Assembly: GCA_026397405.1 (NCBI GenBank)
Contig: JAPLUW010000001.1
Location: forward strand, 407,064-471,063
Direction of reading: 5' to 3'
Source of the DNA: Candidatus Adlerbacteria bacterium
GTDB lineage: Bacteria > Patescibacteriota > Minisyncoccia > Phycocordibacterales > SBAW01
Length of the DNA stretch: 64,000 nt
Shown one piece after another: positions 22,021-36,344 of the stretch (positions are counted from its first letter, which is position 1; every line of letters starts with the position of its first letter). The position numbers and the translations under genes were made by a program. The notes under the pieces are model-generated. The model saw only the letters and a list, made by a program, of their open reading frames with translations. It did no database searches and was not told the DNA's origin.

Positions 22021-23682
<1,662 letters not shown>

Positions 23683-23702
23683 CGAATTCTCAAATAATTT
23701 CA

Positions 23703-23740
23703 AAAACCGCCCCTCCAAACGAAAGGGGTGGTTTTTGTTT
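23703..23740 (+). terminator. rho-independent terminator
   Basis: AACCGCCCCTCC...GGGGTGGTTTTT after groEL. Confidence 0.65.
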
Positions 23741-23777
23741 TGCACGCTGTCTATATATAAGGTACTTTGATATGCAC

Positions 23778-23865
23778 GGAGGCGTCGGATAGTGGTTTAT
23801 TCCACCATCTTGGAAAGATGGCATACCGCAAGGTATCGTGAGTTCAAATCTCACCGCCTCCGCCA
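23778..23865 (+). tRNA. tRNA-Ser (anticodon GGA), CCA encoded
   Basis: Manual fold: acceptor GGAGGCG/CGCCTCC, anticodon loop TTGGAAA, long variable arm, T-loop TTCAAAT, G73. Confidence 0.85.
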
Positions 23866-23892
23866 TAAGAAAATTGTCTATAATTGCAGTAC

Positions 23893-23982
23893 GGAGAGAT
23901 GGATGAGTGGTTTAAATCAACAGTTTACTAAACTGTCGACCCTTAATTGGGTCCGCGAGTTCGAATCTCGCTCTCTCCGCCA
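23893..23982 (+). tRNA. Ser-type tRNA (long variable arm, G73) with apparent anticodon ACU; its 3' end overlaps the left inverted repeat of the mobile element
   Basis: Manual fold: acceptor GGAGAGA/TCTCTCC, D stem GAT/ATC, anticodon stem ACAGT/ACTGT, loop TTACTAA, T-loop TTCGAAT, CCA encoded. Confidence 0.75.
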
Positions 23983-24096
23983 AAATTCGGAATTCAAATT
24001 TCCGCCAAAAATATGGTCGGCGCGAAGCGCCGTCTGTTCTGCATTCCCCCCAAAAAATTCTGATTCAGAAAGGATTTTCCACGCTCCGCGTGGCTC
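23977..24096. repeat. IR1-L: 120-nt inverted repeat (partner 25341..25452, 119/120 identical)
   Basis: Reverse complement of 25341..25452. Contains the dyad site CCACGC-TCC-GCGTGG at 24079..24093. Overlaps the last ~34 codons of the recombinase gene and the tRNA 3' end. Confidence 0.9.
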
Positions 24097-25319
24097 AAAA
24101 TTCGATCCTTAATTTGAAAGTTCGAACCGACTTTTTTGAACAAATGAATATTTTCCTCATTTGTTCGGTCGTTTGCCAATTCCATATTGTATTTCAAAAA
24201 CTTTTCGGTAAGTTCGAACCGATTATTCGCTTTTATACCGTCCGCAAAAAGCGTACTCGATTGGACTTCCGATTGCCGATCTTTTGCATTCTCGGCAATC
24301 ATCCAATTTGCCCAATCGAGCGGCAAAGAAACTTTTTTGATTTCCTCTTGAATTTGAGAAGTGATGAGTTCCTCGCGGACATACTTCTGCTCACAAGGAT
24401 TTTTCCGTTTGGTACACCGCAAATAGTGATGACCTTTTTGTTGCTCGGTTGTTATAAAACATCCACATTCTCCGCAACGGAAAAATCCTCTGTACAAAAA
24501 TAGTTTCAGTCCTTTGGAGTGAGGTTTACTTTTCCTCATCATCACTTCTTGAACGGAATCAAAAAGTTTCTTTGTGATAATCGGTTCGTGCTTTCCCTCA
24601 AAAATCTCTCCGTTATATCGCATTAGACCAGTGTAAATAGGATTTTTGAGAAGTTTTTGATAATTCGACACCGCAAGCTCTCTACCGCTTTTTCTTTTCA
24701 ATCCAAGCCCATTAAACTTGTCGCGGACTTCCCTCAAAGTGAAGTTTCCAGTTGCATATGCCTCAAATGTCTTTTTCACTAAAATCGAAAGTTCGGGATG
24801 AGGCACAATACCTTTTCCTTTCTCGTTCACATAGCCAATCGGAGACATTTGAGGCCATATTCCTTCCTTCACTTTGTTTCTGTGTCCGCGCTTAATATTC
24901 TCCGACAAGTTATCTACATAATACTTGGATTGCGAAAAAGCGATTGAGAGCATGAATTTCCCTTGCGGTGTCGGATCAAACCAAAAAGTTGGAAATTTCA
25001 TTTCTACGATTACGCCAGTATCAACGAGGTAGATTATTTTTCCTCCATCTACCGAGTTGCGAGCAAGTCTATCGGGATGCCACGCCAAAATACCAGACGC
25101 CTCGCCTTTTTCCATTCGCTCCACCATTTCATTAAACACAGGGCGACCTGGTATTTTGGCGGTCTGCTTTTCGACAAAGACATCAACCACTTCCAGTTGT
25201 TCTTTCAACGCGAGTTCTTTTAACTCACTCAACTGGTCGGAAATACTGCGGACTTGTCTGTCTTTGTCGTCCGTAGACTTGCGAGTATAAATGAAAAACT
25301 TTTTGGTTTGATTATTCAT
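23994..25319 (-). CDS. large serine recombinase (resolvase/invertase catalytic domain + recombinase domain + zinc ribbon)
   Basis: N-terminal YTRKSTDD...ISDQ...LAWHPDRLARN resolvase fold with nucleophilic Ser. Central recombinase domain. Cys-rich zinc ribbon CGECGCF...YLRC. 441 aa. Confidence 0.9.
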   Translation of the reverse strand: MNNQTKKFFIYTRKSTDDKDRQVRSISDQLSELKELALKEQLEVVDVFVEKQTAKIPGRPVFNEMVERMEKGEASGILAWHPDRLARNSVDGGKIIYLVDTGVIVEMKFPTFWFDPTPQGKFMLSIAFSQSKYYVDNLSENIKRGHRNKVKEGIWPQMSPIGYVNEKGKGIVPHPELSILVKKTFEAYATGNFTLREVRDKFNGLGLKRKSGRELAVSNYQKLLKNPIYTGLMRYNGEIFEGKHEPIITKKLFDSVQEVMMRKSKPHSKGLKLFLYRGFFRCGECGCFITTEQQKGHHYLRCTKRKNPCEQKYVREELITSQIQEEIKKVSLPLDWANWMIAENAKDRQSEVQSSTLFADGIKANNRFELTEKFLKYNMELANDRTNEENIHLFKKVGSNFQIKDRILSHAERGKSFLNQNFLGGMQNRRRFAPTIFLAEI

Positions 25320-25340
25320 AGATTTGTATTGGCAAACGAC

Positions 25341-25452
25341 GAGCCACGCGGAGCGTGGAAAATCCTTTCTGAATCAGAGTTTTTTGGGGGGAATGCAGAA
25401 CAGACGGCGCTTCGCGCCGACCATATTTTTGGCGGAAATTTGAATTCCGAAT
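25341..25452. repeat. IR1-R: inverted partner of IR1-L
   Basis: Contains CCACGC-GGA-GCGTGG at 25344..25358. Confidence 0.9.
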
Positions 25453-25661
25453 TTTGGCGGTGTGTATTAAACAAAGTTCGAATGTATTTTGAGTTGAATC
25501 CTGACTCCGACTAATCGCACGCGCGGAGCGCGTAGTGGCTCTGGATTGAACCGTACGCCCCGATTGCGTGGGGAAACGAACCAATGCGCCTCGGACAGTC
25601 TCCTCCCCCCACCCCTCCACCGCGAAGCGGAAAAAGAAATGGAAAGGAAATTTTTGGTTTT
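25449..25661. repeat. IR2-L: ~213-nt inverted repeat (partner 35209..35431), identical except two indels
   Basis: Reverse complement of 35209..35431 is identical over ~165 nt. There is a 48-nt insertion here and a 57-nt insertion in the partner. Contains ACGCGC-GGA-GCGCGT at 25511..25525. Confidence 0.9.
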
Positions 25662-25744
25662 GCTTCGCCGTTGTCAATAATCTCATCTATTGTAATATAT
25701 CACATTATTGATATACGGCACAACAAACTGATACACTATAAACT

Positions 25745-25957
25745 GTGGATATGAAAACATCATCAATAAAACTGGGGAAAAACATAAAGCGCATACGAGA
25801 GCGAAAGAAAATGTCGCAAGGCGACATTTGTCGTGCACTCGGCTTTGATCGCGCTCAAATGAGTAATATTGAGGGCGGTAAGGGAAACCCGACACTTGCT
25901 ACTATTGAAAAAATCGCCCAAGCATTAGGAGTCGCTAGCGACGAACTTTTGAAATAA
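25745..25957 (+). CDS. XRE-family HTH transcriptional regulator
   Basis: 70 aa with a Cro/C1-type HTH (QGDICRALGFDRAQMSNIEGG...TLATIEKIAQALGV). Confidence 0.85.
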   Translation: MDMKTSSIKLGKNIKRIRERKKMSQGDICRALGFDRAQMSNIEGGKGNPTLATIEKIAQALGVASDELLK

Positions 25958-25959
25958 AT

Positions 25960-26823
25960 ATGACAACAAAAATATACAAATTCATACCACTCACACTGCT
26001 CGCACTATTTGTCTTCGCTCCGAGTCTTGTTCTAGCCCATCAACCTCGCATTACCGAGAGCAGGCAAACACAAGTCCCTAGTCCAGAAATTTCCAAAGCG
26101 TATTACGGCAAGCTTACCGGCGAGCCAGATGTCTATGTCATACAGGCAAGCGAGCCCTTTGATCTCTACGTCAATATACTCGTCCCCGATATTGCCGGCC
26201 AAAAGAAAGATGTCTCTGCCGTAGTCATTAAAGACGGCAATGTTGAAAAACCTCTGGCAGTTCTTGACGGTATACATTTTGAATGGAAGAAGTTTTATGA
26301 ACCTTTTGGTGCTGACAGCTACTGGATGGGGCCAGAGTACAAGGCCCGCGCAGTAGCTGGTATGTATGAGATCCGCGTATCGAGCCCAAACAACGACAGC
26401 AAGTACTCACTCGCCATCGGCGAGATAGAAGCTTTTGACGGCAAGGAGGGATTGAATGCACTCACTGTCATCCCCGAGCTAAAGAAAAACTTTTTTGAAG
26501 TATCTCCAATAAGTTTTATTAAATCACCGTTCGGCTGGGGACTTATCGTGGTTATGTATATTCTTGCGTTCATTGTGGGCTTCATCTACCGCACAATTTT
26601 GAAAAAGTTTGCCAAAAATTCTTCCCGTGGCGTTGCCCGAAATATCGGCAAGCCCGACCGCTTGCTCCGTGCGGTCATCGGCGTAGCATTACTCCTATGG
26701 GCTATCACCACCACATGGAGCCCTATCCTCATCTTCTTCTCCGGCTTCGCATTCTTTGAGTCGATATTTAGCTGGTGTGGATTTTATGCAGCTCTCGGCA
26801 AAAACACCTGCCCGGTGGAGTAA
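25960..26823 (+). CDS. secreted/membrane protein with C-terminal DUF2892-like (YgaP-type) TM domain
   Basis: Signal peptide. Soluble ~190-aa domain. C-terminal two-TM segment ending SWCGFYAALGKNTCP, typical of DUF2892. Confidence 0.6.
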   Translation: MTTKIYKFIPLTLLALFVFAPSLVLAHQPRITESRQTQVPSPEISKAYYGKLTGEPDVYVIQASEPFDLYVNILVPDIAGQKKDVSAVVIKDGNVEKPLAVLDGIHFEWKKFYEPFGADSYWMGPEYKARAVAGMYEIRVSSPNNDSKYSLAIGEIEAFDGKEGLNALTVIPELKKNFFEVSPISFIKSPFGWGLIVVMYILAFIVGFIYRTILKKFAKNSSRGVARNIGKPDRLLRAVIGVALLLWAITTTWSPILIFFSGFAFFESIFSWCGFYAALGKNTCPVE

Positions 26824-26943
26824 AAATTTACGGCCAAAGTATCACTTGCCACTGAAGATTGGGGTTCGCAAATAGGATGGGGAGGGAATAGTGGCTATTG
26901 AAAAATAAAGTTTATAATAGAAGTAAGGACTGAAGATACATAA

Positions 26944-27210
26944 ATGGATACTATAACCATACACACGATTGCCATCATTGCGTTTATTATCTGGAGTTTT
27001 CCTCTGGGATTGTTTCGCAGTCGATTTAGGAAGATGGTCTATCAAACTGATAGCTGGTGGATTAATGTAAAGCCCGTTTTTTGGGAGGAGATCAAAGTGC
27101 TTTTTGGCTTTCATCAGCGCACGAAGAGGGCAGAGTTGCGGCTGATTAATTTCTATCGTTTTTATCTGATCGTATACTTCGCTATTTTAATTTTAATACT
27201 ATCAACCTGA
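26944..27210 (+). CDS. small membrane protein (hypothetical)
   Basis: 88 aa with two hydrophobic helices. Followed by hairpin 27309..27350. Confidence 0.45.
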   Translation: MDTITIHTIAIIAFIIWSFPLGLFRSRFRKMVYQTDSWWINVKPVFWEEIKVLFGFHQRTKRAELRLINFYRFYLIVYFAILILILST

Positions 27211-27352
27211 TAGATAAATACTACCTACACCTTGTACTCATACCATGAGAAGCCCACATGAGCGCCACCCTCCTGGCTTTTTTAGTTGGGTGGGGGAGGT
27301 GGTAGAATAAAACGTAAATTTAGTCGATATTCGTGTATAATTTACGTTTTTC

Positions 27353-27381
27353 TTGACTTATTTTAATAAATAGACTATAAT
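27353..27381 (+). promoter_or_regulatory. consensus sigma-70 promoter upstream of fic (-35 TTGACT, 17-nt spacer, -10 TATAAT)
   Basis: TTGACT at 27353..27358 and TATAAT at 27376..27381, 14 nt before the ATG. Preceded by an 11-bp-arm hairpin plus T-run (27309..27350). Confidence 0.55.
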
Positions 27382-27395
27382 TTGAGTAAATATTT

Positions 27396-28289
27396 ATGAA
27401 AAATATACCCAAAAAAGTCCAAAATATCATAGATTTAAAAAAGAAATTCGATGCTCTTAAAAAGGGCAAAGATTCTCTTTTAACTATTCTTGAAGATGTA
27501 GAGTTGGCGGAATCTGTTTATAACTCAAATGCTATTGAAAACAGCACACTTACTCTACCTGACACAGAAAAAATACTATTGGATCTGGAAGTTTCTAAGG
27601 ATTATTCTTTACGTGAAGTTTTTGAAGCCAAAAATCTAGCTCGTGTATATGAATACATAAAGATAAAAAAAGATAGTATTGTTCTTAATCAAAAAACAAT
27701 GCTTTTTCTCCATAGCCTGCTTATTGGTGGCATAGATGATTCGATTGCTGGCAGGTTTAGAAAAGAGAGCGAATATGTCAGAGTTGGCAAACATGTAGCT
27801 CCAGCGCCAGAACATGTAATACGAATGATCGAGGTAATTCTCGATGAATACAAATCAAATCATGATGCAAATGTATTTGCCAAGATTGCTCACTTCCATT
27901 TACAGTTTGAAACAATACATCCATTTTGTGATGGGAATGGGCGTATTGGGCGTGTATTAATAAATCTGCAACTTCAGGAATTTGGTTATCCAAATATAAT
28001 TATTCGTGATAAAGAAAAGCAAGTTTATTATAGAACTTTTACACATTTTCGTGATACAAAATCAACAAAGCAAATGGAGAAAGTTATACATCTTGCATTG
28101 TTAGAGGGTTTACACAAAAGGATTGCATATTTAGAAAGCGCAACCATAGTCACTCTTTCTGCTTACGCAAAGAAACATTCATTACCCCTTGCAAATCTTA
28201 TCAATAGCGGAAGACGACAAACTATTCCAGCTTTTCGTGAAAAGGGTATTTGGAAAATAGGAGTTGAATATAAAAAAATAGATTTATGA
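27396..28289 (+). CDS. Fic family protein (AMPylator/NMP-transferase) with N-terminal inhibitory motif
   Basis: Fic motif HPFCDGNGRIGR. N-terminal [ST]xxxE[GN]-type inhibitory motif SNAIEN. Confidence 0.9.
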   Translation: MKNIPKKVQNIIDLKKKFDALKKGKDSLLTILEDVELAESVYNSNAIENSTLTLPDTEKILLDLEVSKDYSLREVFEAKNLARVYEYIKIKKDSIVLNQKTMLFLHSLLIGGIDDSIAGRFRKESEYVRVGKHVAPAPEHVIRMIEVILDEYKSNHDANVFAKIAHFHLQFETIHPFCDGNGRIGRVLINLQLQEFGYPNIIIRDKEKQVYYRTFTHFRDTKSTKQMEKVIHLALLEGLHKRIAYLESATIVTLSAYAKKHSLPLANLINSGRRQTIPAFREKGIWKIGVEYKKIDL

Positions 28290-28363
28290 AGAAAATTATT
28301 TAAAAATTGCAAAGGAGTATCTGTCTAAAAACTAATTTCATATACAAATGGTATAATAAATGT

Positions 28364-30034
28364 ATGAATGAAATTTTTTATACGGATGTCGCTAATGATT
28401 TGCGTACAATAATCAAAGGAGATATTTCTATCTTAGACAGTGATCGAGAAAAAGCTGCGCGAGACACAAGCCTTTTTTATGTAAAACCTCGCATTGTTGT
28501 CTACCCAAAAAGCAAAGAAGACATTGCAAGACTTGTTGCTTATGTGCATGCAAAAAAAACTAAAGATATAGATCAGGGTGTTCCGTTATCCCTCACCATG
28601 CGAGCCGCTGGTACATGTATGACCGGTGGCCCACTTTCGGAATCCATCGTCGTAGACACAATGAAATACATGAATCATGTATTTTCTGTCACCGACACAG
28701 AGGCCATAACAGAGCCGGGAGTATACTATAGTGATTTTGAGAAAAAAACTCTTGCGCACGGCTGGCTTTTGCCAAGCTATCCGGCGTCTCGTGATTTGGC
28801 TGCGATTGGAGGTATTGTCTCTAATAACTCAGGAGGTGAAAAGACACTTACCTATGGAAAGACGGAAAAGTATGTTCGCTCGCTCCGTGTTGTATTTGCA
28901 AATGGAGAAGAAGATGTTCTAGAACCACTTCATGCAGAGAAACTTATCGCAAAATGCGAAGAGCAAACTGAAAGCGGGCGAATTCATCGAGAGATATTTG
29001 CCCTTGTAAAGGACAACTATGATGTACTGCAACAAGCAAAACCGACAGTAACAAAAAATTCTTCGGGGTACTATCTTTGGAATGTCTACGATAAAGAATC
29101 AGGAGTATTTGACCTATCAAAGCTCGTTGTGGGCAGTCAGGGAACCCTTGCCTGTGTGACTGAAGCGACATTGAGTGGAATTGCCCCCAAAAAACATTCC
29201 AGAATGCTCGTTATGTTTTTGCCAGCCACAACACAACTAGGAGAAATAATTCCAAGACTTTTAAAACATACACCTGAAACCATCGAATCTTATGATGATC
29301 ATACGTTTAAAATAGCGATTAAATTCTTTGGCTCAATTGCAAAAAGCATGGGGGGTACTATGTTGACGCTCGGGTTCCAATTTTTGCCTGAGTTTTGGAT
29401 GGCAATCACTGGCGGAGTTCCAAAGATAATTCTCATGGCAGAATTTGCAGGGGATACTGAAGAAGAAGTTGCAGAGCAGGTACAGTCAGCATATAACGAG
29501 ATGAAGGTATTCGGATTTCCTATTACATTGACGCACTCGGAACAAGAAGCAAAAAAGTATTGGACATTCAGGCGCGAAAGCTTCAACCTGCTTCGCCAGA
29601 AGTTGCGAGGGTATCGAACGGCACCCACAATTGATGATATTGTCGTACACACAAAAGATCTCCCGGAGTTTCTTCCCAAACTTGAAATTATTTTTTCAAA
29701 ATATGATCTTATTTATACTGTAGCCGGACATATGGGAGATGCAAACTTTCATATTATTCCGCTTATTGACATTCATAAAGAAGGAATAGTTGAGACTCTC
29801 CACACACTCATGGATGAAGTCTATACTCTCGTATTTCAGTATGGAGGTTCTATGTCTGGAGAACATAATGACGGACTTTTACGTACCTCGTACCTTTCGC
29901 AGATGTTTAACCCTGAGATCGTACGTCTCTTTGAAAAGACAAAAGATATTTTTGACCCGCTTGCTATTTTAAACCCAGGTAAAAAAGTGTATGGAGACAA
30001 GGGTTTTGCGTGGAATCATATTGATACAAAATAA
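28364..30034 (+). CDS. FAD-linked oxidase (FAD_binding_4 / GlcD-like, D-lactate dehydrogenase family)
   Basis: FAD-binding PCMH domain (VVYPKSKEDIARLV...RAAGTCMTGG) and a C-terminal FAD-oxidase_C region. Start moved to internal ATG 28364. Confidence 0.8.
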   Translation: MNEIFYTDVANDLRTIIKGDISILDSDREKAARDTSLFYVKPRIVVYPKSKEDIARLVAYVHAKKTKDIDQGVPLSLTMRAAGTCMTGGPLSESIVVDTMKYMNHVFSVTDTEAITEPGVYYSDFEKKTLAHGWLLPSYPASRDLAAIGGIVSNNSGGEKTLTYGKTEKYVRSLRVVFANGEEDVLEPLHAEKLIAKCEEQTESGRIHREIFALVKDNYDVLQQAKPTVTKNSSGYYLWNVYDKESGVFDLSKLVVGSQGTLACVTEATLSGIAPKKHSRMLVMFLPATTQLGEIIPRLLKHTPETIESYDDHTFKIAIKFFGSIAKSMGGTMLTLGFQFLPEFWMAITGGVPKIILMAEFAGDTEEEVAEQVQSAYNEMKVFGFPITLTHSEQEAKKYWTFRRESFNLLRQKLRGYRTAPTIDDIVVHTKDLPEFLPKLEIIFSKYDLIYTVAGHMGDANFHIIPLIDIHKEGIVETLHTLMDEVYTLVFQYGGSMSGEHNDGLLRTSYLSQMFNPEIVRLFEKTKDIFDPLAILNPGKKVYGDKGFAWNHIDTK

Positions 30035-30057
30035 AAAATTTGTAGCCATTCTTAATT

Positions 30058-30447
30058 TTGCTATACTACAAGCATATGGAACATACAACTATACAGAGTC
30101 AGACCCCTACTCCTGAAAATAACTCGCCACTGACTCAACAAAAATGCATGGCATGCGAGGGTGGTGTCATTCCTTTTTCAAAGATAGAGGCAGATATATT
30201 ATGCAAGCAAATTCCCGGCTGGGATATTTCGCTTGATGCTAAAAGTATCGCCAAGCGATATGGTTTTAAAGACTTCAATGAAGCTCTTGTTTTTGTAAAT
30301 AAGGTTGGCGTTTTGGCTGAATCAGAGGGGCATCATCCGGACATATATCTGAAAGACTACAAATTTGTAGAGCTCACACTGTCCACCCATGCAATTAACG
30401 GACTCTCTCAAAATGATTTTATTCTTGCGGCTAAAATAGACGCCTAA
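30058..30447 (+). CDS. pterin-4-alpha-carbinolamine dehydratase (PCD/DCoH) with short Cys-containing N-terminal extension
   Basis: PCD signature region FNEALVFVNKVGVLAESEGHHPDIYLKDYKFVELTLSTHA. Confidence 0.85.
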   Translation: MLYYKHMEHTTIQSQTPTPENNSPLTQQKCMACEGGVIPFSKIEADILCKQIPGWDISLDAKSIAKRYGFKDFNEALVFVNKVGVLAESEGHHPDIYLKDYKFVELTLSTHAINGLSQNDFILAAKIDA

Positions 30448-30539
30448 TGTACTAGTATAATTCCATTAAACTATGATTAATCATTCTCCCTGTTATAGTT
30501 CTTGCAATGAAATCATGGTGGATATTAATAAATAACATT

Positions 30540-31667
30540 ATGGAAGAATCTTTGACAAAAAAACTCGATTTTATAGTCATAGGCGCAGGTATTGCCGGGC
30601 TTTCGTGTGCTTATCACCTCACCAAAGATGGTTACAGCGTCATGGTGTTCGAGAAATCGGACGGAAAAGATAATGCAAGCTATGCCTCTACCGCGGAGAT
30701 GAATCACGATCCGGACGCAAGCTGGGATAGGATCATAAGTAAGTTTGGTATTCGGGGGGCAAGGTACATCTGGAAACTTTCTGAATTTTCTGCGCAGAAA
30801 CTTACGAAATTCGCACATCGTCCGGGGTCGGAACACTTTTCGACCAAGCGAGTGCCGGCGCATATTTTTACCTATGACCAGAAAGGCGTAACGCTCTTAA
30901 AAAAGAGATTTGAACTATATAAGAAAATAGGGGCACAGGTTACGTTCACAGAAAACGCAAAATCTCTGCACAAGAATTTTCGTTCCTCGATAACTATAAA
31001 AAACGAAGGCGCAACAAATAACCAAGCTCTACTAATAGCTCTCCGGGCCGCCACGCACGAACAGGGTGGCAAGGTTATGTACAAGACGCCAGTAGTAGAT
31101 CTCAAGGTCAACAAGCAGGGGGTAGAAGTCAGAACAAAAAAAGGGAATATATTTCATGCAAAGCATGTGATACTCGCGACAGGCGGAATAGAGCTCATTA
31201 ATCTCCCGATCAAGATTGGGAGAGAGCGAACGTTTGTTGTGAGTTACAAAAAGCGAAATATGGACAAACTTTTCTCGTCTTCGCTCCTGTGGGATACAGC
31301 TGAGCCATTTCATTACATCCGTTCATTTGTAGGAAAGCGACTTTGGGTCGGAGGAGAAGACGTGGCAGAGGAATCCTATACACCTAGCTCGGACAAAAGG
31401 CATATTGCTGCACTGGATAAATATTCCAGAGAAGTATTGGCACTTGATTCCTCATACGTTCTTGAAAAGAAAAAAAGTTGGAGCGGAGTTTTTTTTCCGA
31501 CCGCGCGTGGATTGCCGTATATTGGCGACGTAGCCGGAACACCTATAAAACTTGCATTAGGATTCGGTGGGTCAGGTATTCTTATGTCTTTTGTATCTGG
31601 ATATCTAATTGCCTCATGGCTGAAGAAAAAAGAAATGAAATACAAACCGCTGTTCAAGATATGGTGA
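30540..31667 (+). CDS. FAD-dependent oxidoreductase (DadA/glycine-oxidase-like)
   Basis: Rossmann DFIVIGAGIAGLSCAYHL. C-terminal GG..G (FGGSGILMS). Confidence 0.8.
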   Translation: MEESLTKKLDFIVIGAGIAGLSCAYHLTKDGYSVMVFEKSDGKDNASYASTAEMNHDPDASWDRIISKFGIRGARYIWKLSEFSAQKLTKFAHRPGSEHFSTKRVPAHIFTYDQKGVTLLKKRFELYKKIGAQVTFTENAKSLHKNFRSSITIKNEGATNNQALLIALRAATHEQGGKVMYKTPVVDLKVNKQGVEVRTKKGNIFHAKHVILATGGIELINLPIKIGRERTFVVSYKKRNMDKLFSSSLLWDTAEPFHYIRSFVGKRLWVGGEDVAEESYTPSSDKRHIAALDKYSREVLALDSSYVLEKKKSWSGVFFPTARGLPYIGDVAGTPIKLALGFGGSGILMSFVSGYLIASWLKKKEMKYKPLFKIW

Positions 31668-31750
31668 ACTTTTACTCCGAATTGGGGAGCTAAGATGTCG
31701 GGGAAAAGGGGCTGGAAAACTGAGGCTTTTAGTGTCTGATCAATACAAAT

Positions 31751-31782
31751 AAAAAAACTCTAACTTTTGTTAGAGTTTTTTT
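31751..31782. terminator. bidirectional rho-independent terminator between convergent genes
   Basis: AAAAAAACTCTAAC...GTTAGAGTTTTTTT. Confidence 0.7.
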
Positions 31783-31801
31783 ATTTGTATTTCAGATGTA
31801 T

Positions 31802-32203
31802 TTATTTTGGCATCAAGACTGAGTCGATGACATGGATTACTCCGTTTGTACATTCTATGTCTGTTTGTACTACTTTGGCGTCGTTTACCATAACTCCATT
31901 TGCAGTGTCTATTTTAACTTCACCACCCTGTACTGTCTTTGCAGAAGTTAGACCCATTACATCAGAAGCCATTACTTTTCCTGCCACTACATGGTACGTA
32001 AGTATAGCTGTTAGCTTTGCTTTATCCGCGAGGACTGCATCGAGAGTCTCTTTTGGAATTTTGGCGAAAGCCTCATCAGTTGGAGCAAATACAGTGAAGG
32101 GCCCTGCACCAGATAGAGTGTCTACTAATCCTGCTACTTGTACTGCTGTTACTAAAGTTTTAAAGGATCCTGCCGCGACAGCTGTTTCTACGATATTTTG
32201 CAT
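31802..32203 (-). CDS. fasciclin (FAS1) domain protein
   Basis: [11 protein letters not shown]...LTYHVV...[13 protein letters not shown]1 motifs. Confidence 0.85.
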
Positions 32204-32265
32204 ATATTTATTTTAAATTGATTAAATATTGTTAATGCATACATGAAACAATTCGGGGTCGGAGA

Positions 32266-32472
32266 TTACTTTCTTCCAAGGTTTCCTAATTGAGTAAGAA
32301 GGTATACAGCTGATAGTCCTACCAATGTATATACTATTCTTGAGATTGCTGACATGTCACCAAACAGAGTTGCAACTAAGTCGAAATTTATTACCCCAAC
32401 TAATGCCCAGTTTAGACCACCTACAATCACAAGGATCATAGATACTAAATCCAATAAGTTTAATTTATTCAT
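32266..32472 (-). CDS. DUF378 family small membrane protein
   Basis: 68 aa. VGGLNWALVG motif. Confidence 0.8.
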   Translation of the reverse strand: MNKLNLLDLVSMILVIVGGLNWALVGVINFDLVATLFGDMSAISRIVYTLVGLSAVYLLTQLGNLGRK

Positions 32473-32584
32473 TTTATTTTTTTAATATTTTAAATTATCA
32501 ATTCGACCTTCCTCACTTGATATAGTTATATTATAAGATTTATGATAAAATAATGCAATACTTGTTTATAATTAACAATAACGT

Positions 32585-33241
32585 ATGTCGATGAATAAAA
32601 CTATGATCAATATACTTATCGCTTTGTTTGTTATTGTGGTGCTTTGGTCTATCTCAGGATTTTTTGGTTCTCGTGTTGAGCAAGCTGACTATACTGTCCT
32701 TGAGATAAAGGATGGATATGAAATACGAGAATATCCGGCACATATCGTAGCGCAGACTATGGTAAAGGGTTCTTATGGAGAATCTATGAATAATGGTTTT
32801 AGAATTGTGGCTGGGTATATCTTTGGCGGGAATACAAAAAAAGAAAGCATAGCCATGACCGCTCCAGTCGTCGCGCAAAGTGGCAAAGGTGAAAAAATAT
32901 CAGAAAGCATAGCCATGACTGTACCAGTCGTCGCGACGACTGAGGGCGACTCGCAAATAATATCTTTCGGCATGCCTCGTTCTTATACTCTGGAAACATT
33001 GCCGACACCAAATGATCCTCGAGTGAAAATTGTGATGATTCCTACCAAGAAATATGCAGTACTGCAGTTCTCATGGTATCGCTCGGATGCTCGGGTAAAA
33101 AACATGCAAGAAAAATTAGCTTCGGCACTTGCTCGTGATGGAGTAGCAACAAAGGGAAACACTGCATACGCTGGATACAATGCACCGTGGACTCCACCGT
33201 GGATGAATCGTAACGAAGTATTGGTTGAAATTATTAATTAA
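32585..33241 (+). CDS. SOUL/HBP heme-binding family protein with internal 20-aa tandem duplication
   Basis: SOUL-like fold (N-terminal TM, GYIFGGN, C-terminal ...YNAPWTPPWMNRNEV). 60-nt tandem duplication at 32843..32935 (ESIAMTAPVV / ESIAMTVPVV). Confidence 0.75.
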   Translation: MSMNKTMINILIALFVIVVLWSISGFFGSRVEQADYTVLEIKDGYEIREYPAHIVAQTMVKGSYGESMNNGFRIVAGYIFGGNTKKESIAMTAPVVAQSGKGEKISESIAMTVPVVATTEGDSQIISFGMPRSYTLETLPTPNDPRVKIVMIPTKKYAVLQFSWYRSDARVKNMQEKLASALARDGVATKGNTAYAGYNAPWTPPWMNRNEVLVEIIN

Positions 33242-33252
33242 TCTTATTTTTT

Positions 33253-33651
33253 ATGTTCATAAAACTTTACGCAATCGCATTACCAGTTTTCTTCGCCATC
33301 GACATGGTGTGGCTCGGGCTCGTGGCCAAAGACTTTTATCGAGGGCAAATAGGCACGCTTATGAAAAGTGATGTCAACTGGACCGCGGGGATTATTTTTT
33401 ACCTGATATTTATTGTGGGACTAGTGGTATTTGTCATCACACCAGCCGTGGAAAGGGGCTCATGGACGCACGCACTACTTTTCGGTGCGCTGTTTGGTTT
33501 GGTGTGTTATGCAACCTATGACCTCACCAACCTCGCGACACTCAAAGATTGGCCATTGCTCGTAACTATCGTTGATTTAGCGTGGGGTGCAGTACTCGCG
33601 GCTTCCGTATCTACCGCGACATACTTCATCGCAAGCAAGATCGGTTTATGA
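33253..33651 (+). CDS. DUF2177 family membrane protein
   Basis: 132 aa with 4 TM helices. YDLTNLATLKDWP motif. Confidence 0.65.
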   Translation: MFIKLYAIALPVFFAIDMVWLGLVAKDFYRGQIGTLMKSDVNWTAGIIFYLIFIVGLVVFVITPAVERGSWTHALLFGALFGLVCYATYDLTNLATLKDWPLLVTIVDLAWGAVLAASVSTATYFIASKIGL

Positions 33652-34412
33652 GTTATTACACAGCGCTCATTTTACTATTGTTTGCATACATGAGCCTGTG
33701 GTTTGCGGTTTCTTTGATTAAAAAAAGGAATGATGTGGCTGATGTGGCATGGGGTCTGGGATTCGTACTCATGACATGGGTGTCTTTTTTTCTTTCGGAT
33801 GATTCGGGAGTAAGAGGGCTGCTGGTGGGTATCTTGGTAACTGTGTGGGGCTTGCGTTTGGCGTGGCATATTCATGCACGAAACAAGGGCAAGGCGGAGG
33901 ACTATCGGTATCTCGCGTGGCGGAAAGAATGGGGCAAGTGGTTTTATATTCGTTCGTATTTCCAAGTCTATCTTTTGCAAGGTCTGTTTTTGTTTCTCAT
34001 CGTTCTGCCAGTACTGCTTATAAACAAAAGTGCAAGCGGAGATATCGGCTTACTCGATTTCTTAGGCGTAGCCGTTTGGCTCTTTGGTTTTTATTATGAA
34101 GCTGTCGGTGATGCACAACTCGCCCGATTTATTAAAAATCCTGCAAACAAAGGTAAGCTACTGCAAAGCGGACTGTGGGCATATACTCGGCATCCAAATT
34201 ATTTTGGTGAAGTAACGCAATGGTGGGGCATTTGGCTTGTCGCGCTTTCTGTACCTAGTGGTTGGTTTAGTATAATTGGGCCGATAACTATAACCTTTTT
34301 GATTTTGAAAGTTTCAGGTATTCCTATGCTCGAGAAAAAAATGGAAGAGAATCCAGATTTTGCAGAGTATAAAAGTAAAACAAGCGTATTTATTCCGTTG
34401 CCTAGAAAATAA
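33648..34412 (+). CDS. DUF1295 / 3-oxo-5-alpha-steroid 4-dehydrogenase-like membrane protein
   Basis: YTRHPNYFGEVTQWWGIW motif. Start ATG 33648 overlaps the previous stop (ATGA). Confidence 0.8.
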   Translation: MSYYTALILLLFAYMSLWFAVSLIKKRNDVADVAWGLGFVLMTWVSFFLSDDSGVRGLLVGILVTVWGLRLAWHIHARNKGKAEDYRYLAWRKEWGKWFYIRSYFQVYLLQGLFLFLIVLPVLLINKSASGDIGLLDFLGVAVWLFGFYYEAVGDAQLARFIKNPANKGKLLQSGLWAYTRHPNYFGEVTQWWGIWLVALSVPSGWFSIIGPITITFLILKVSGIPMLEKKMEENPDFAEYKSKTSVFIPLPRK

Positions 34413-34418
34413 CGTAGC

Positions 34419-34856
34419 ATGCATAATTTTGATCCACGCTTTAAACCAGACCTTACTCCAAAAGAAATGCTTCGTCTTGGAGTCTTTGGCGGATTATATT
34501 TTTCTGATAAGCCGAAGGAATTTCCAAAAGATTGGTGGCGGAGTGCAAAATTATCACCCGATGGAAAACGGCACAAAGAACTGAATTATTTTGGCGTGAA
34601 TGCCAGTCAGCCGCTTTCAGTGTGGCAAGCCAAAGGCTGGATCAATCCACAAGATCCACGTGGATGGTTTCAGTGGTATTGCAGATACTATATGGGTCGT
34701 AGAACAGCCGACGACGAGCGACAAATTAAAAGATGGCTCGCTATGCGACGACATATAATGCAAATCAAAAATAATTGCAGAGCTGAAGATATTTTTTGTC
34801 GGCCTCGCCAAAGACAAGCGGTATTGCATTGGGCCTATGACGCGAGAAAAATGTGA
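34419..34856 (+). CDS. conserved hypothetical protein (possibly DUF4385)
   Basis: 145-aa soluble protein. GWFQWYCRYYMGRR...DERQIKRW. Confidence 0.5.
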   Translation: MHNFDPRFKPDLTPKEMLRLGVFGGLYFSDKPKEFPKDWWRSAKLSPDGKRHKELNYFGVNASQPLSVWQAKGWINPQDPRGWFQWYCRYYMGRRTADDERQIKRWLAMRRHIMQIKNNCRAEDIFCRPRQRQAVLHWAYDARKM

Positions 34857-35208
34857 TCTAGGGAGCAATCCCCGTTGTTTTATAATGTTTTCTAAAAACG
34901 GCGAGGATTGTTGTGCGCGCATAGGGCGGGCGGGGCAAGCACATACAGATTTGTTTGTGCCTATGCACAATCCATATTCTTTAGGGTTACCACTCCACTC
35001 CCTCGAAGCCACCAAGCGAACAGACACAACGCCAAAGCAGCCAGCGCGAGCGAATGCGAGCGGGCTATGCGGAGGCGATTGTGTGTGGTTCGCGGACTCT
35101 AGAACTACCACTAAACGTCGCTATGGCACGCGCCTCGGTCGCCACAAGGAAATGGAGCAAATGGGCTTCATTGTGATAACTTTGTTGCCCTTTGTGGAGT
35201 TTCCTTGT

Positions 35209-35431
35209 GGCGAAGCAAAACCAAAAATTTCCTTTCCATTTCTTTTTCCGCTTCGCGGTGGAGGGGTGGGGGGAGGAGACGCGAGAAAAATGCAAGGAAA
35301 TTTTTTGGTTTTTGCACACGCGAGTCCGCGAGCGTGTCCGAGGCGCATTCCACTACGCGCTCCGCGCGTGCGATTAGTCGGAGTCAGGATTCAACTCAAA
35401 ATACATTCGAACTTTGTTTAATACACACCGC
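35209..35431. repeat. IR2-R: inverted partner of IR2-L
   Basis: Contains ACGCGC-TCC-GCGCGT at 35355..35369. Ends ...ACACACCGC followed by AAAAT. Confidence 0.9.
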
Positions 35432-35600
35432 AAAATAATGCGCCCGACAAGTATGTATTGGGGGGGGATTATATTTTTGCGTGAGAAGCGGATATTTATA
35501 ATTCACCCAGTGCTCCTAGCACGACATCTATTAATAGGTAATAATGTCACTACTGAAGGCCGTTTTCATACGTATCTTTATTCTCTAATACAATTCACAC

Positions 35601-36344
35601 ATGCATTTAAAAGGACTTGTTGATTATGCCCAACCTTTGGTGGCAGCGGGAACGGTGCTCTCATTGGCCTTTGTCATCTCTGTTGGTATCGGGGCATACA
35701 CCTCCTACCAAATTAAGGTGGAAAGTAACACCATCGAAGTGACGGGTTCGGCAAAAGAATCAGTCGTTTCTGACTTTGGACGTTGGACCATTAACCTTAC
35801 TACCGCGACATCTGTCGATAATCAACAAGTGGGGTTCGACCGGTTGGAGAATGCCTCAAAACATATTCTTGCGTATCTTGCTGGCCAGGGATTCGCGAAT
35901 GTAGAAACTCCTGCTCCTGTAGTCGATTCGAGTTATATATATCCTGAAAAGAGCGCACCTATACTTACTGGCTATACAGTATCGCGCCAGATAATTGTAA
36001 GCAGTGCTGACATTGATAAGCTTTCAGTGCTTGCAGGGTCGGTAGCTCCGCTGTCTGGCTTTGGGTATAACGTAACTACAAATAGCGTAGAGCTTACGTA
36101 TCAAAAACTTCCGGAAGAAAGAGTCGTGCTGCTCTCAGGTGCCATTAAAGATGCACAGGCTCGCGCGGAAGCCATCGCAAAAGAAACTGGAAGGTCGGTA
36201 GGGGCCCTTAAGTCAGCCACGGGCGGGGTAGTACAAGTCCTTCCTAAAGGCGGTGTTGATATAAGTGACTCTGGTATGTATGACACCTCCAATAAAAATA
36301 AGGATGTGATGGTTACTGTGCGAGCCAGTTTCATTTTGAAATAA
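35601..36344 (+). CDS. SIMPL domain (DUF541) membrane-anchored protein
   Basis: N-terminal TM. SIMPL-like ~220-aa domain. Confidence 0.65.
   Translation: MHLKGLVDYAQPLVAAGTVLSLAFVISVGIGAYTSYQIKVESNTIEVTGSAKESVVSDFGRWTINLTTATSVDNQQVGFDRLENASKHILAYLAGQGFANVETPAPVVDSSYIYPEKSAPILTGYTVSRQIIVSSADIDKLSVLAGSVAPLSGFGYNVTTNSVELTYQKLPEERVVLLSGAIKDAQARAEAIAKETGRSVGALKSATGGVVQVLPKGGVDISDSGMYDTSNKNKDVMVTVRASFILK

Follow-up and report, generated by a model that had tools for sequence, protein, structure and literature searches.

A probable decaying member of a family of tRNA-Ser-tip islands moved by a large serine recombinase, with an inverted internal copy of its attP-like site

Serine integrases, which are the closest described systems to the element reported here, need only ~50-bp sites and leave no attP behind. 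Among other elements with serine recombinases, the staphylococcal cassette chromosome (SCC) targets rlmH, has short direct and imperfect inverted repeats, usually encodes two recombinases (ccrAB) and lacks an internal inverted site. Tn4451 and Tn5397 rely on TnpX/TndX and have GA-dinucleotide ends, while IS607 has a small serine recombinase with an N-terminal helix-turn-helix (HTH), no inverted repeats and little target specificity. Patescibacteria (candidate phyla radiation, CPR) have tiny genomes with few recognised mobile elements and mostly use restriction-modification rather than CRISPR for defence. Here, we analyze a stretch of 64,000 nt from Candidatus Adlerbacteria bacterium, a member of the Patescibacteriota (assembly GCA_026397405.1, contig JAPLUW010000001.1, positions 407,064 to 471,063; hereafter the window), in which an island at 23977-35431 starts inside the 3' end of a tRNA-Ser gene. 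We consider this island, with a probability of roughly 0.7, to be a decaying member of a family of integrative islands that are moved into tRNA-Ser tips by a large serine recombinase (LSR). A preliminary description made from the letters alone had proposed an insertion at the tRNA-Ser 3' end, an LSR and an AT-rich cargo. All three are borne out by the analysis, with a windowed GC content of 35-46% in the cargo and 47-51% in the flanks.

First, we focus on the repeats. A repeat finder run on the whole window returned three inverted pairs, namely 23977-24096 with 25341-25460 (120 nt, 99% identity, 1 mismatch), 25453-25538 with 35350-35435 (86 nt, 99%) and 25598-25669 with 35209-35280 (72 nt, 100%). 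A 15-mer common to both arms lies between the latter two pairs, and in a global alignment these become one second repeat of 173 identical-register nt with two indels. The inverted repeats of the preliminary description are therefore real. Its second repeat had been given as identical over ~165 nt apart from two indels; the indels exist but are independent deletions, of 54 nt in the left and 44 nt in the right arm. Besides the similarity of tRNA genes to each other, the repeat finder detected no further long repeats in the 64 kb, which excludes a chance origin of the pairs.

The repeats meet at three sites that share a short core. We refer to the sequence to the right of the core as a and to the sequence to the left of the core at the far end as b^, with a^ and b as their inverted partners. 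Site 1 is a junction of the tRNA with a (…tRNA…CTCTCT / CCGCCAAAAT / TCGGAATTC…). Site 2, given as the reverse complement of the internal junction, is a junction of b^ with a (…TTTAATACACA / CCGCCAAAAT / TCGGAATTC…), and site 3, the far junction, connects b^ with the former tRNA trailer (…TTTAATACACA / CCGC-AAAAT / AATGCGCCC…). The three sites stand in an attL / attP / attR relation, and the nested repeats are the two halves of one duplicated attP region of ~330-390 nt. The two repeats had earlier been called unrelated; instead, they overlap by 8 nt at 25453-25460 as halves of one attP-like site. Likewise, the supposed two separate cassettes with flanking inverted repeats give way to an element that contains a second attP-like copy, which is intact but inverted between recombinase and cargo (25341-25669). 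The layout reads tRNA - a - recombinase (antisense) - a^ b - XRE - cargo - conserved non-coding region - b^.

Arm a starts with the last six bases of tRNA-Ser(ACT) (CCGCCA), and the core CCGC is made up of the final two bases of the acceptor stem, the discriminator G and the leading C of CCA. The end sequences CCGCCAAAAT (23977) and CCGCAAAAT (35428) are both present in the window, and the suggestion that this short direct repeat marks an att core was sound. Across relatives, however, the core common to all three sites is reduced to CCGC. When 25 element copies are aligned, sites 1 and 2 become identical from CCGC onward and sites 2 and 3 are identical up to CCGC, with an overlap of 4-11 nt. 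A serine integrase recombines attP and attB to attL and attR, which have few bases in common. The relations between the sites in the window and in the 25 copies appear to fit this pattern, as only CCGC is shared.

The left half-sites further resemble those of serine integrases. In tRNA-Ser, the motif GTTCGAA of the T-loop lies 11 nt from CCGC, and an identical motif is found 16 nt from the core in b^ (17 nt in a few cases). As a hallmark of serine-integrase sites, the distance between the centre and the motif bound by the zinc-ribbon domain is 5 bp shorter in attB than in attP (PMC3783163). While the left half-sites thus show a spacing of 11 vs. 16 nt, the right halves (a and trailer) display no mirrored pattern. 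Arm a has TTCGRAAT 5 nt from the core (TTCGGAAT in the window), the trailer is unconserved, and a comparison of arm a with b^ in 25 element copies revealed no mirrored motif.

Both arms contain hairpins. In arm a, GGCGCGAAGCGCC forms a hairpin at 24019-24031 and CCACGCTCCGCGTGG forms another one near the inner end. GC-rich mini-hairpins of the d(GCGAAGC) type are located at 24019-24031 and 25405-25419 in arm a and at 25620-25630 in arm b, and the mini-hairpins of the arms score as bidirectional terminators. Their stems vary among arm types by compensating changes (GTCGCGCC…GGCGCGAC, GTCGGCGC…GCGCCGAC, GTCGGCAC…GTGCCGAC), and therefore the hairpin is conserved and not its sequence.

The same architecture recurs in relatives. 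The recombinase has 7613 database homologues, the best of which are 73-83% identical (mostly 75-83%), and a scan with one genome per species led to 273 relatives; 80 loci were fetched and examined (cited below by L numbers where they need to be told apart). Relatives are mostly metagenome-assembled genomes (MAGs) of Patescibacteria, and the few named homologues are labelled Patescibacteria, Paceibacteria, Minisyncoccia or Liptonbacteria. A few related records are titled Gammaproteobacteria, Bdellovibrionales, Actinomycetota or Bacteroidia, a taxonomy that goes by the title alone. Across the 80 loci, the recombinase is 70-84% identical, and self-comparison of each locus uncovered the same nested pairs of inverted repeats in 25 element copies at 23 loci. 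Almost wherever both flanks are present, arms of ~120 nt bracket the recombinase, and a convergent tRNA-Ser adjoins the downstream arm in 61 loci, with the anticodons GCT, CGA, GGA, TGA and ACT, that is, all five isoacceptors. The second repeat measures 190-275 nt (up to 433), its proximal arm adjoins the upstream 120-nt arm, and the partner is 1.2-6.4 kb away. The layout is also found in a second LSR lineage, which is only 41% identical and whose arms measure 132-143 nt. The arrangement does not persist universally without its enzyme; relatives nearly always have an intact recombinase, with an uninterrupted open reading frame (ORF) in 54 of 59 scorable copies. Past site 3, the sequences are unrelated among loci and often start with a terminator hairpin, as expected for original tRNA trailers. 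Unoccupied tRNA-Ser sites, for which the preliminary description suggested a search, do occur. The window contains empty tRNA-Ser(GGA) and tRNA-Ser(CGA) genes with the same CCGC (CTCCGCCATAAG and CTCCGCACAATA, respectively), and an identical tRNA-Ser(ACT) with an empty 3' end is found on a metagenome contig (L091). The islands are a family of small (about 3-12 kb) integrative elements at tRNA-Ser tips that is widespread in Patescibacteria.

The target gene of the window is unusual in its own right. While bacteria normally read AGY codons with GCU, tRNA-Ser(ACT) carries A34, possibly as inosine, in an ordinary cloverleaf with a long variable arm. This tRNA recurs in the window and in L001, L006, L008, L015, L026, L074, L091 and L092, often beside another tRNA-Ser.

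The junctions in relatives obey strict rules. All 74 b starts are preceded by GCGG together with either a^ or a trailer, and none by sense tRNA. The order a^ then b is found everywhere except in L020 and L026, and neither tRNA/b nor a^/trailer junctions were seen among these b starts. Within an element, the arms are nearly always identical: of 25 pairs each, 18 (a) and 14 (b) match perfectly, as do 31 of the 54 a pairs around an intact recombinase. Between elements, the median identity is 87-89% and half of the arms do not align at all; the three elements in the genome of L008 have arms that are 100% alike within each element and 71-73% alike between elements. This contrast indicates that the two copies evolve in concert. 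Furthermore, orientation is nearly invariant. Of the 62 loci in which an adjacent tRNA-Ser is recognisable, 61 have the 3' end of the recombinase gene pointing toward the tRNA, and in all 49 comparisons of homologous cargo between elements the segments run the same way with respect to the recombinase. Hence, a free-running inversion switch is not supported, and the term "invertible" used for the island at first finds no comparative backing.

Several loci deviate from the simple layout. Tandem arrays of two or three complete elements, some of the second lineage, are present in L008 (900-14400), L025 (3037-14994), L068 (3529-11509) and L081 (1-11400). Spacers of ~165-180 nt with degenerate tRNA-Ser copies separate the elements in L008 and L081, while those in L068 abut directly, creating a b^/a junction between different elements. 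L081 was considered as a case of an element inside the attR of another and rejected, as its junctions represent two tandem (pseudo-)tRNA-Ser genes, each canonically occupied. In L020 (9778-11582) and L026 (9780-11584), the recombinase lies between two different, inverted tRNA-Ser genes, and the two arms diverge over the 30-70 nt next to the core but agree farther inward. This mismatch near the core led us to reject the capture of a second tRNA by attP x attB recombination; the arm pattern fits better with homologous recombination between the arms of two elements, which would amount to a chromosomal inversion. The recombinase of L015 (9775-11437) is located downstream of tRNA-Ser and is co-directional with it. 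Taken with L020 and L026, this locus implies that homologous recombination between elements at different tRNA-Ser genes has inverted chromosomal segments. Numerous metagenome contigs terminate at the 120-nt arms or within them; L014, L021, L038 and L073, for example, begin within the upstream arm. The elements are a recurrent cause of assembly breaks in Patescibacteria MAGs and possibly also of mis-joins.

Table 1. Coordinates of the tRNA genes, attachment sites, arms and genes of the island in the window.
Feature	Position	Strand	Remarks	Basis
tRNA-Ser(GGA)	23778..23865	+	neighbour gene, unoccupied potential target (…CTCCGCCATAAG)	ARAGORN, Rfam
tRNA-Ser(ACT)	23893..23982	+	target gene; T-arm and acceptor 3' strand are the left (B) half of the attachment site	ARAGORN, Rfam
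Site 1 core CCGC	23977..23980	+	tRNA/a junction, attL-like	three-site comparison, window and 25 element copies
Arm a (IR1-L)	23977..24096	+	overlaps the recombinase 3' end	repeat finder
Large serine recombinase gene, degraded	23994..25319	-		Pfam domains; protein and DNA alignments
Arm a^ (IR1-R)	25341..25460	+	21 nt upstream of the recombinase start codon	
Site 2 core (GCGG on the + strand)	25457..25460	-	- strand reads b^/CCGC/a, intact attP-like composite, inverted	
Arm b (IR2-L)	25453..25669	+	GTTCGAA 16 nt from core; lacks 54 nt held by the partner arm and the intact L070 arm	
XRE-type HTH gene, 70 aa	25745..25957	+	conserved backbone, heads the cargo operon, divergent from recombinase	Pfam
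Cargo genes	25960..34856	+ (fasciclin, small membrane protein -)		Pfam
AT-rich block (35-42% GC)	26830..32563	.	secondary insertion inside the cargo; absent from the L003 cargo	
Conserved hairpin-rich non-coding region	34857..35208	-	far cargo end, possibly structured RNA on the recombinase-sense strand	
Arm b^ (IR2-R)	35209..35435	+	lacks 44 nt held by the partner arm and L070	
Site 3 core CCGC	35428..35431	+	b^/B' junction, attR-like; former tRNA trailer next	
SIMPL/DUF541 gene	35601-36344		beyond site 3 and the former tRNA trailer	

The minus-strand protein of 441 aa, which the preliminary description had recognised as an LSR, has Resolvase, Recombinase and Zn_ribbon_recom domains. PF00239 matches residues 9-154 (E=7e-20), including the motif YTRKSTDD with Ser15, which is invariant in 13 aligned sequences, and PF07508 (E=2e-14) and PF13408 (E=2e-8) are found as well. 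With the intact relative from L037 as query, residues 206-396 match the C-terminal domain structure of A118 integrase (4kis). The family is distantly homologous to the TP901-1, A118 and SPbeta enzymes, with 24-29% identity to integrases of the TP901-1/A118 type. Searches of 2.9 million viral contigs, 50,697 phage records and 72,556 plasmids returned no close relatives of the recombinase, and an exact-protein look-up of the window enzyme returned no record.

Relatives are longer than the window protein (about 500-560 aa), and in most of them the ORF passes through arm a and the core (F-W-R) into the antisense tRNA (…RRxRDSNPR…, of which RDSNPR is the antisense T-arm), which accounts for variable database lengths of 494-650 aa. 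The annotated lengths of the homologues P0001-P0120 spread from 455 to 647 aa because the called ORFs run through arm a into antisense tRNA or into arm b. The C-terminal tails are mostly not comparable protein sequence.

The window copy shows several signs of decay. Judging from a protein alignment with 12 homologues and a DNA alignment with L001, L003, L008 and L037, the recombinase gene has lost 153 nt in frame, corresponding to 51 aa of the coiled-coil motif (KADISLLDSKIEKLM…KEKLSAFEQ) that is present in all 12 aligned relatives. In LSRs, this coiled coil is inserted in the zinc-ribbon domain and determines which sites can synapse; it is absent from the window copy and present in relatives, where intact ORFs are the rule, so that the window gene is an exception. 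A further deletion of 7 nt just before arm a shifts the frame, and the ORF ends inside the arm; the last 34 codons of the recombinase lie within arm a, as previously noted. Domains and deletions together mark the enzyme as a damaged member of the LSRs. Compared with the intact arm of ~275 nt in the closely related L070 element, each b arm has a deletion of its own, 54 nt on the left and 44 nt on the right, so that the arms of the window are no longer homogenised. L090 had been considered as the intact reference for the b arm and was replaced by L070, since its distal part is rearranged. L092 comes from a close relative of the host (98.8% identity in the flank). Here, the same two tRNA genes are succeeded by an arm of another a-type, by 30 nt from the 3' end of a recombinase gene and by a homologue of the gene that comes first in the cargo. 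This remnant at the same tRNA indicates that the tRNA is a hot spot and that loss of the recombinase recurs. The window copy is probably no longer mobile by its own recombinase, and on the sequence evidence the island is best seen as a fixed, eroding passenger.

The cargo of the window encodes a YgaP-like membrane protein, Fic, an FAD-linked oxidase, pterin-4a-carbinolamine dehydratase, a DAO oxidoreductase, fasciclin and a small membrane protein (both on the minus strand), SOUL, DUF2177 and DUF1295 proteins and an ORF of 145 aa. Collinearity with the L003 cargo, at 75-81% identity, extends over two segments (25952-26830 and 32563-34973). The 5.7 kb between them have the lowest GC content (35-42%) and contain the genes for Fic, FAD-linked oxidase, DAO-type oxidoreductase, pterin-4a-carbinolamine dehydratase, fasciclin and the small membrane protein; no mobility gene is recognisable in this block. 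A 34-nt direct repeat (91% identical, copies 60 nt apart, 32842-32875 and 32902-32935) within the gene of the SOUL haem-binding protein is probably a trivial internal duplication of a short peptide segment.

In relatives, the cargo mostly consists of restriction-modification and defence genes, including N6/N4, C5 and D12 methylases, the nucleases HpaII, TdeIII, EcoRI and ResIII, AAA_13/15/21 ATPases and Type I/IIG systems. A type I restriction-modification genomic island is depicted in MAG nzgw456, where recombinase, tRNA and repeats are unmentioned (PMC12455944); the nzgw456 genome carries the L023 element. Neither the window cargo nor 28 related cargoes contain phage structural, packaging, replication or transfer genes. 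An XRE-type HTH gene of 65-73 aa adjoins site 2 in 23 of the 28 cargoes, divergent from the recombinase and at the head of a variable-gene operon. We also considered that the b arms duplicate a promoter and dropped this idea, as a sigma-70 scan did not exceed the shuffled expectation and the XRE promoter candidates lie just outside arm b.

Many cargoes share a conserved, hairpin-rich non-coding region of 230-330 nt at their far end, between the last gene and the b arm (e.g., L003 4638-4900, L037 4234-4560, L070 3930-4270). Its consensus fold, derived from the same alignment of 11 sequences from about three clades on which it was evaluated, has 38 pairs, of which 98% are paired, with five compensatory pairs and four invariant G-U pairs on the recombinase-sense strand. 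For four of five pairing measures, shuffling attains the observed value no more than once in 500 trials, while for the fifth it does so in 355 of 500. An optional internal domain of ~100 nt is missing in three elements. The pattern is suggestive of an element-encoded structured RNA. An Rfam scan of 23600-35700 at E<=1 yielded two tRNAs and noise, with no match in the arms or the far-end region.

Taken together, we favor a reading in which the LSR would integrate a circular form of the island by recombination of attP (b^/a) with attB (tRNA-Ser 3' end/trailer), where the circle and the catalysis are both inferred from the sites and the crossover would take place inside CCGC. The LSR might recognise mainly the tRNA half of attB; the GTTCGAA spacing of 11 vs. 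16 nt in the left halves equals the 5-bp zinc-ribbon offset between attB and attP of LSRs. Gene conversion or homologous recombination between the arms may keep them identical. The internal attP copy lies in the divergent control region of recombinase and XRE gene and would probably serve regulation and/or later recombination: binding of the recombinase to this copy could regulate both promoters, and the copy could also stay a live recombination partner.

A number of observations weigh against this integration model. Its main weakness is that a circle with two attP copies predicts two integration isomers, whereas relatives show essentially one. The orientation problem calls for an added assumption (selection or cis preference), and the missing second isomer is the reason why a switch and a self-splint are kept as rivals. 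Among the fetched loci and in a metagenome scan, neither a circular form nor an excision scar nor an empty site at the same locus was recovered; the scan, performed for the 3' half of tRNA-Ser(ACT), returned two contigs, neither of which is an empty copy of the exact locus. Arm a is no mirror of b^, which makes the proposed attP very asymmetric, and the right half of attB is unconserved, which is unusual for LSRs. Moreover, b^/a junctions between elements, as in L068, imply non-canonical LSR pairings or homologous recombination. No recombination directionality factor was identified in the elements. Finally, the repeats (120 + ~200 nt) far exceed the length of LSR sites, for which the model gives no reason.

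A further reading, which we consider unlikely, regards the inverted attP copy, with its base-for-base match to the element ends, as an obligatory working part of a distinct class of mobile elements that would need no separate directionality factor. As a tail-swapping switch, a flip of the recombinase module would exchange a "parked" tail encoded by the antisense tRNA for an acidic tail encoded by b; as a self-splint, a single DNA strand would rebuild a double-stranded attP.

A programmed inversion switch in general, which we judge improbable, would have the recombinase or RecA flip the 1.5-kb recombinase module via the 120-nt arms and/or the cargo via the b arms and thereby switch expression. 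In its favor, perfect inverted repeats bracket both segments. In the version that involves the tail, the flip would fuse the recombinase ORF to a^-GCGG-b, restore a conserved acidic tail of 16-19 aa and turn mobility on. When the frame is read across a^-GCGG-b, every b type indeed encodes such a tail (R[CY]xL[DY][KE][VI]Rx[YF]FxxNPx[DE]..), and in 34 of the 35 distinct b types the frame terminates at codon 16-19. The N-P pair never varies and is written with all four Pro codons, and variation is highest at third codon positions. In the integrated orientation, by contrast, the ORF enters the antisense tRNA and the tails are variable. However, shifting the frame does not lower the synonymous fraction of the tail, and the first 27 nt of the tail overlap conserved half-site DNA. 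Thirteen of 120 database homologues bear the b-encoded tail, but most of these are on short contigs that end inside b (L095, L097), as assemblers produce at such a repeat, and since the examined contigs all stop there, we rejected these proteins as evidence of a circular or flipped form. The tail hints that the recombinase may at times be joined to b, as a circle or as a flipped module, with weak codon statistics. Two loci agree with a switch, namely L090, which reads b^/a - recombinase - a^/b on a 257-kb contig, and L015 with its co-directional recombinase. Against it stands the almost fixed orientation of recombinase and cargo described above. Furthermore, site 1 resembles attL, and a recombination of attL with attP is not among the reactions of canonical LSRs (PMC3783163).

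Less probable again is an origin from two independent nested cassettes, in which a recombinase module (circle junction a^/a) and a cargo module (b^/b) were separately inserted at CCGC. Both modules end in perfect inverted repeats of their own, and a homodimeric recombinase would be well served by a symmetric junction. Moreover, a-types and b-types reassort among loci, and recombinase and cargo modules alternate in the arrays of L008, L025, L068 and L081. Symmetric junctions, however, would lead one to expect either orientation, whereas a single one is found. b always follows a^, except in the two loci explained by inversion between elements, and neither a cargo module directly at the tRNA nor a recombinase module at a tRNA trailer was encountered. 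In addition, b would have to be an attP-type and an attB-type half-site at once.

A still smaller chance is given to single-strand transfer with self-splinting, a process for which we know of no precedent. Here, a folded strand of the island, taken up for example by natural transformation, would pair a with a^ and b with b^, and the internal a^-GCGG-b would template the joining of the ends into a double-stranded attP, yielding a circle without excision or a directionality factor. This would account for the internal copy being the exact reverse complement of the joined ends and for arms whose length goes far beyond a recombinase site and which agree fully within an element, as repair of a/a^ and b/b^ heteroduplexes would yield this identity. 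The elements have no transfer, replication or identified excision genes, yet the recombinase is well conserved across the 80 loci. The mini-hairpins of the d(GCGAAGC) type in both arms and the reported natural competence of Patescibacteria (PMC12455944) are likewise in line with such a route. The idea is nevertheless purely inferential, ordinary gene conversion also accounts for the arm identity, and a double-stranded circle made from a folded strand still has two attP copies, so that the orientation problem stays. Lastly, chimeric assembly or a degraded prophage remnant can practically be dismissed: although many related contigs break at or inside the arms and the recombinase is distantly related to phage integrases, an artefact is excluded because the architecture is the same in >50 independent assemblies from different assemblers, including OY969413.1 and OZ246398.1, each a single chromosome by its title, as well as contigs of 0.8-0.95 Mb, and a prophage is contradicted by cargoes devoid of phage structural or replication genes and by the missing close homologues in viral contigs and phage records.

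The family looks like a major vehicle that moves restriction-modification, defence and accessory genes among distant CPR lineages, with one compact recombinase and one conserved target, the tRNA-Ser tip, serving this movement. The layout attL - integrase - inverted attP - cargo - attR is unexplained by what is known about serine integrases, and the role of the inverted copy could reveal a new control of integrase directionality or of transfer. For genome engineering, the family is also a source of numerous natural integrases that are closely related and have a short, conserved target in a tRNA gene. For the reconstruction of CPR genomes, it matters that the 120-nt arms break short-read assemblies and may drive chromosomal inversions between tRNA-Ser genes. 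The window copy itself is of interest mainly as a fossil of island decay and fixation.

In line with the earlier impression that the island belongs to no described family, the literature and the searches of phages, plasmids and viral contigs provided no family with this layout. Searches of the open-access full-text literature found no description of the architecture, and the family, though common in Patescibacteria, has apparently not been described. Tyrosine-integrase islands of the Islander type and, by their description only, Prochlorococcus tycheposons likewise insert at tRNA 3' ends, leave the tRNA intact, carry variable cargo and form tandem arrays at hot-spot tRNAs. In contrast to them, the islands reported here use serine chemistry and carry long inverted repeats, and their far end repeats only CCGC(+AAAAT) instead of a displaced tRNA 3' segment. 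The Hin/Gin/Cin systems also combine a serine recombinase gene with a DNA segment bounded by inverted repeats. However, these are small invertases (~190 aa) with 26-bp sites, a Fis enhancer and both orientations in common use, whereas the islands have an LSR of ~500 aa (441 aa in the window) with LSR domains, repeats of 120-275 nt and a fixed orientation across genomes. The yeast 2-micron plasmid (FLP/FRT) would be similar if the island circularises, as two long inverted copies of a site divide the circle into a recombinase and a cargo segment. It differs in being a eukaryotic plasmid with a tyrosine recombinase and free flipping for copy-number amplification; the islands have no replication gene and show no evidence of flipping, and their circle is conjectural. 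A resolvase-first LSR, long repeats and a strict tRNA-Ser target set the islands apart from IS607 and Tn4451/Tn5397. More similar is SCC, whose Ccr recombinases are LSRs and whose cassettes are located at the 3' end of a conserved gene, with variable cargo, composite arrays and recombinase-less remnants.

The closest resemblance is to the elements and prophages of phiC31, Bxb1, TP901-1, A118 and SPbeta. These have an enzyme with Resolvase, Recombinase and zinc-ribbon (plus coiled-coil) domains, an integrase gene beside the att site, an att relation with few shared crossover bases and a recognition motif that, compared with the element half-site, is shifted toward the centre by 5 bp in the host half-site, a shift that the islands show in their left halves and not in their right ones. 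Unlike these elements, the islands target the tRNA-Ser 3' tip, conserve only one host half-site, measure 3-12 kb without phage genes in the window cargo or 28 related cargoes, and encode a recombinase at most about 28% identical to characterised enzymes. Above all, they keep an intact, inverted second attP, which gives rise to perfect inverted repeats of 120 nt and ~200 nt. In this perfectly matched internal attP, the islands differ from phage integrases and those of integrative and conjugative elements, SCC, Tn4451/Tn5397, IS607 and Hin/Gin alike, some of these being compared by general description.

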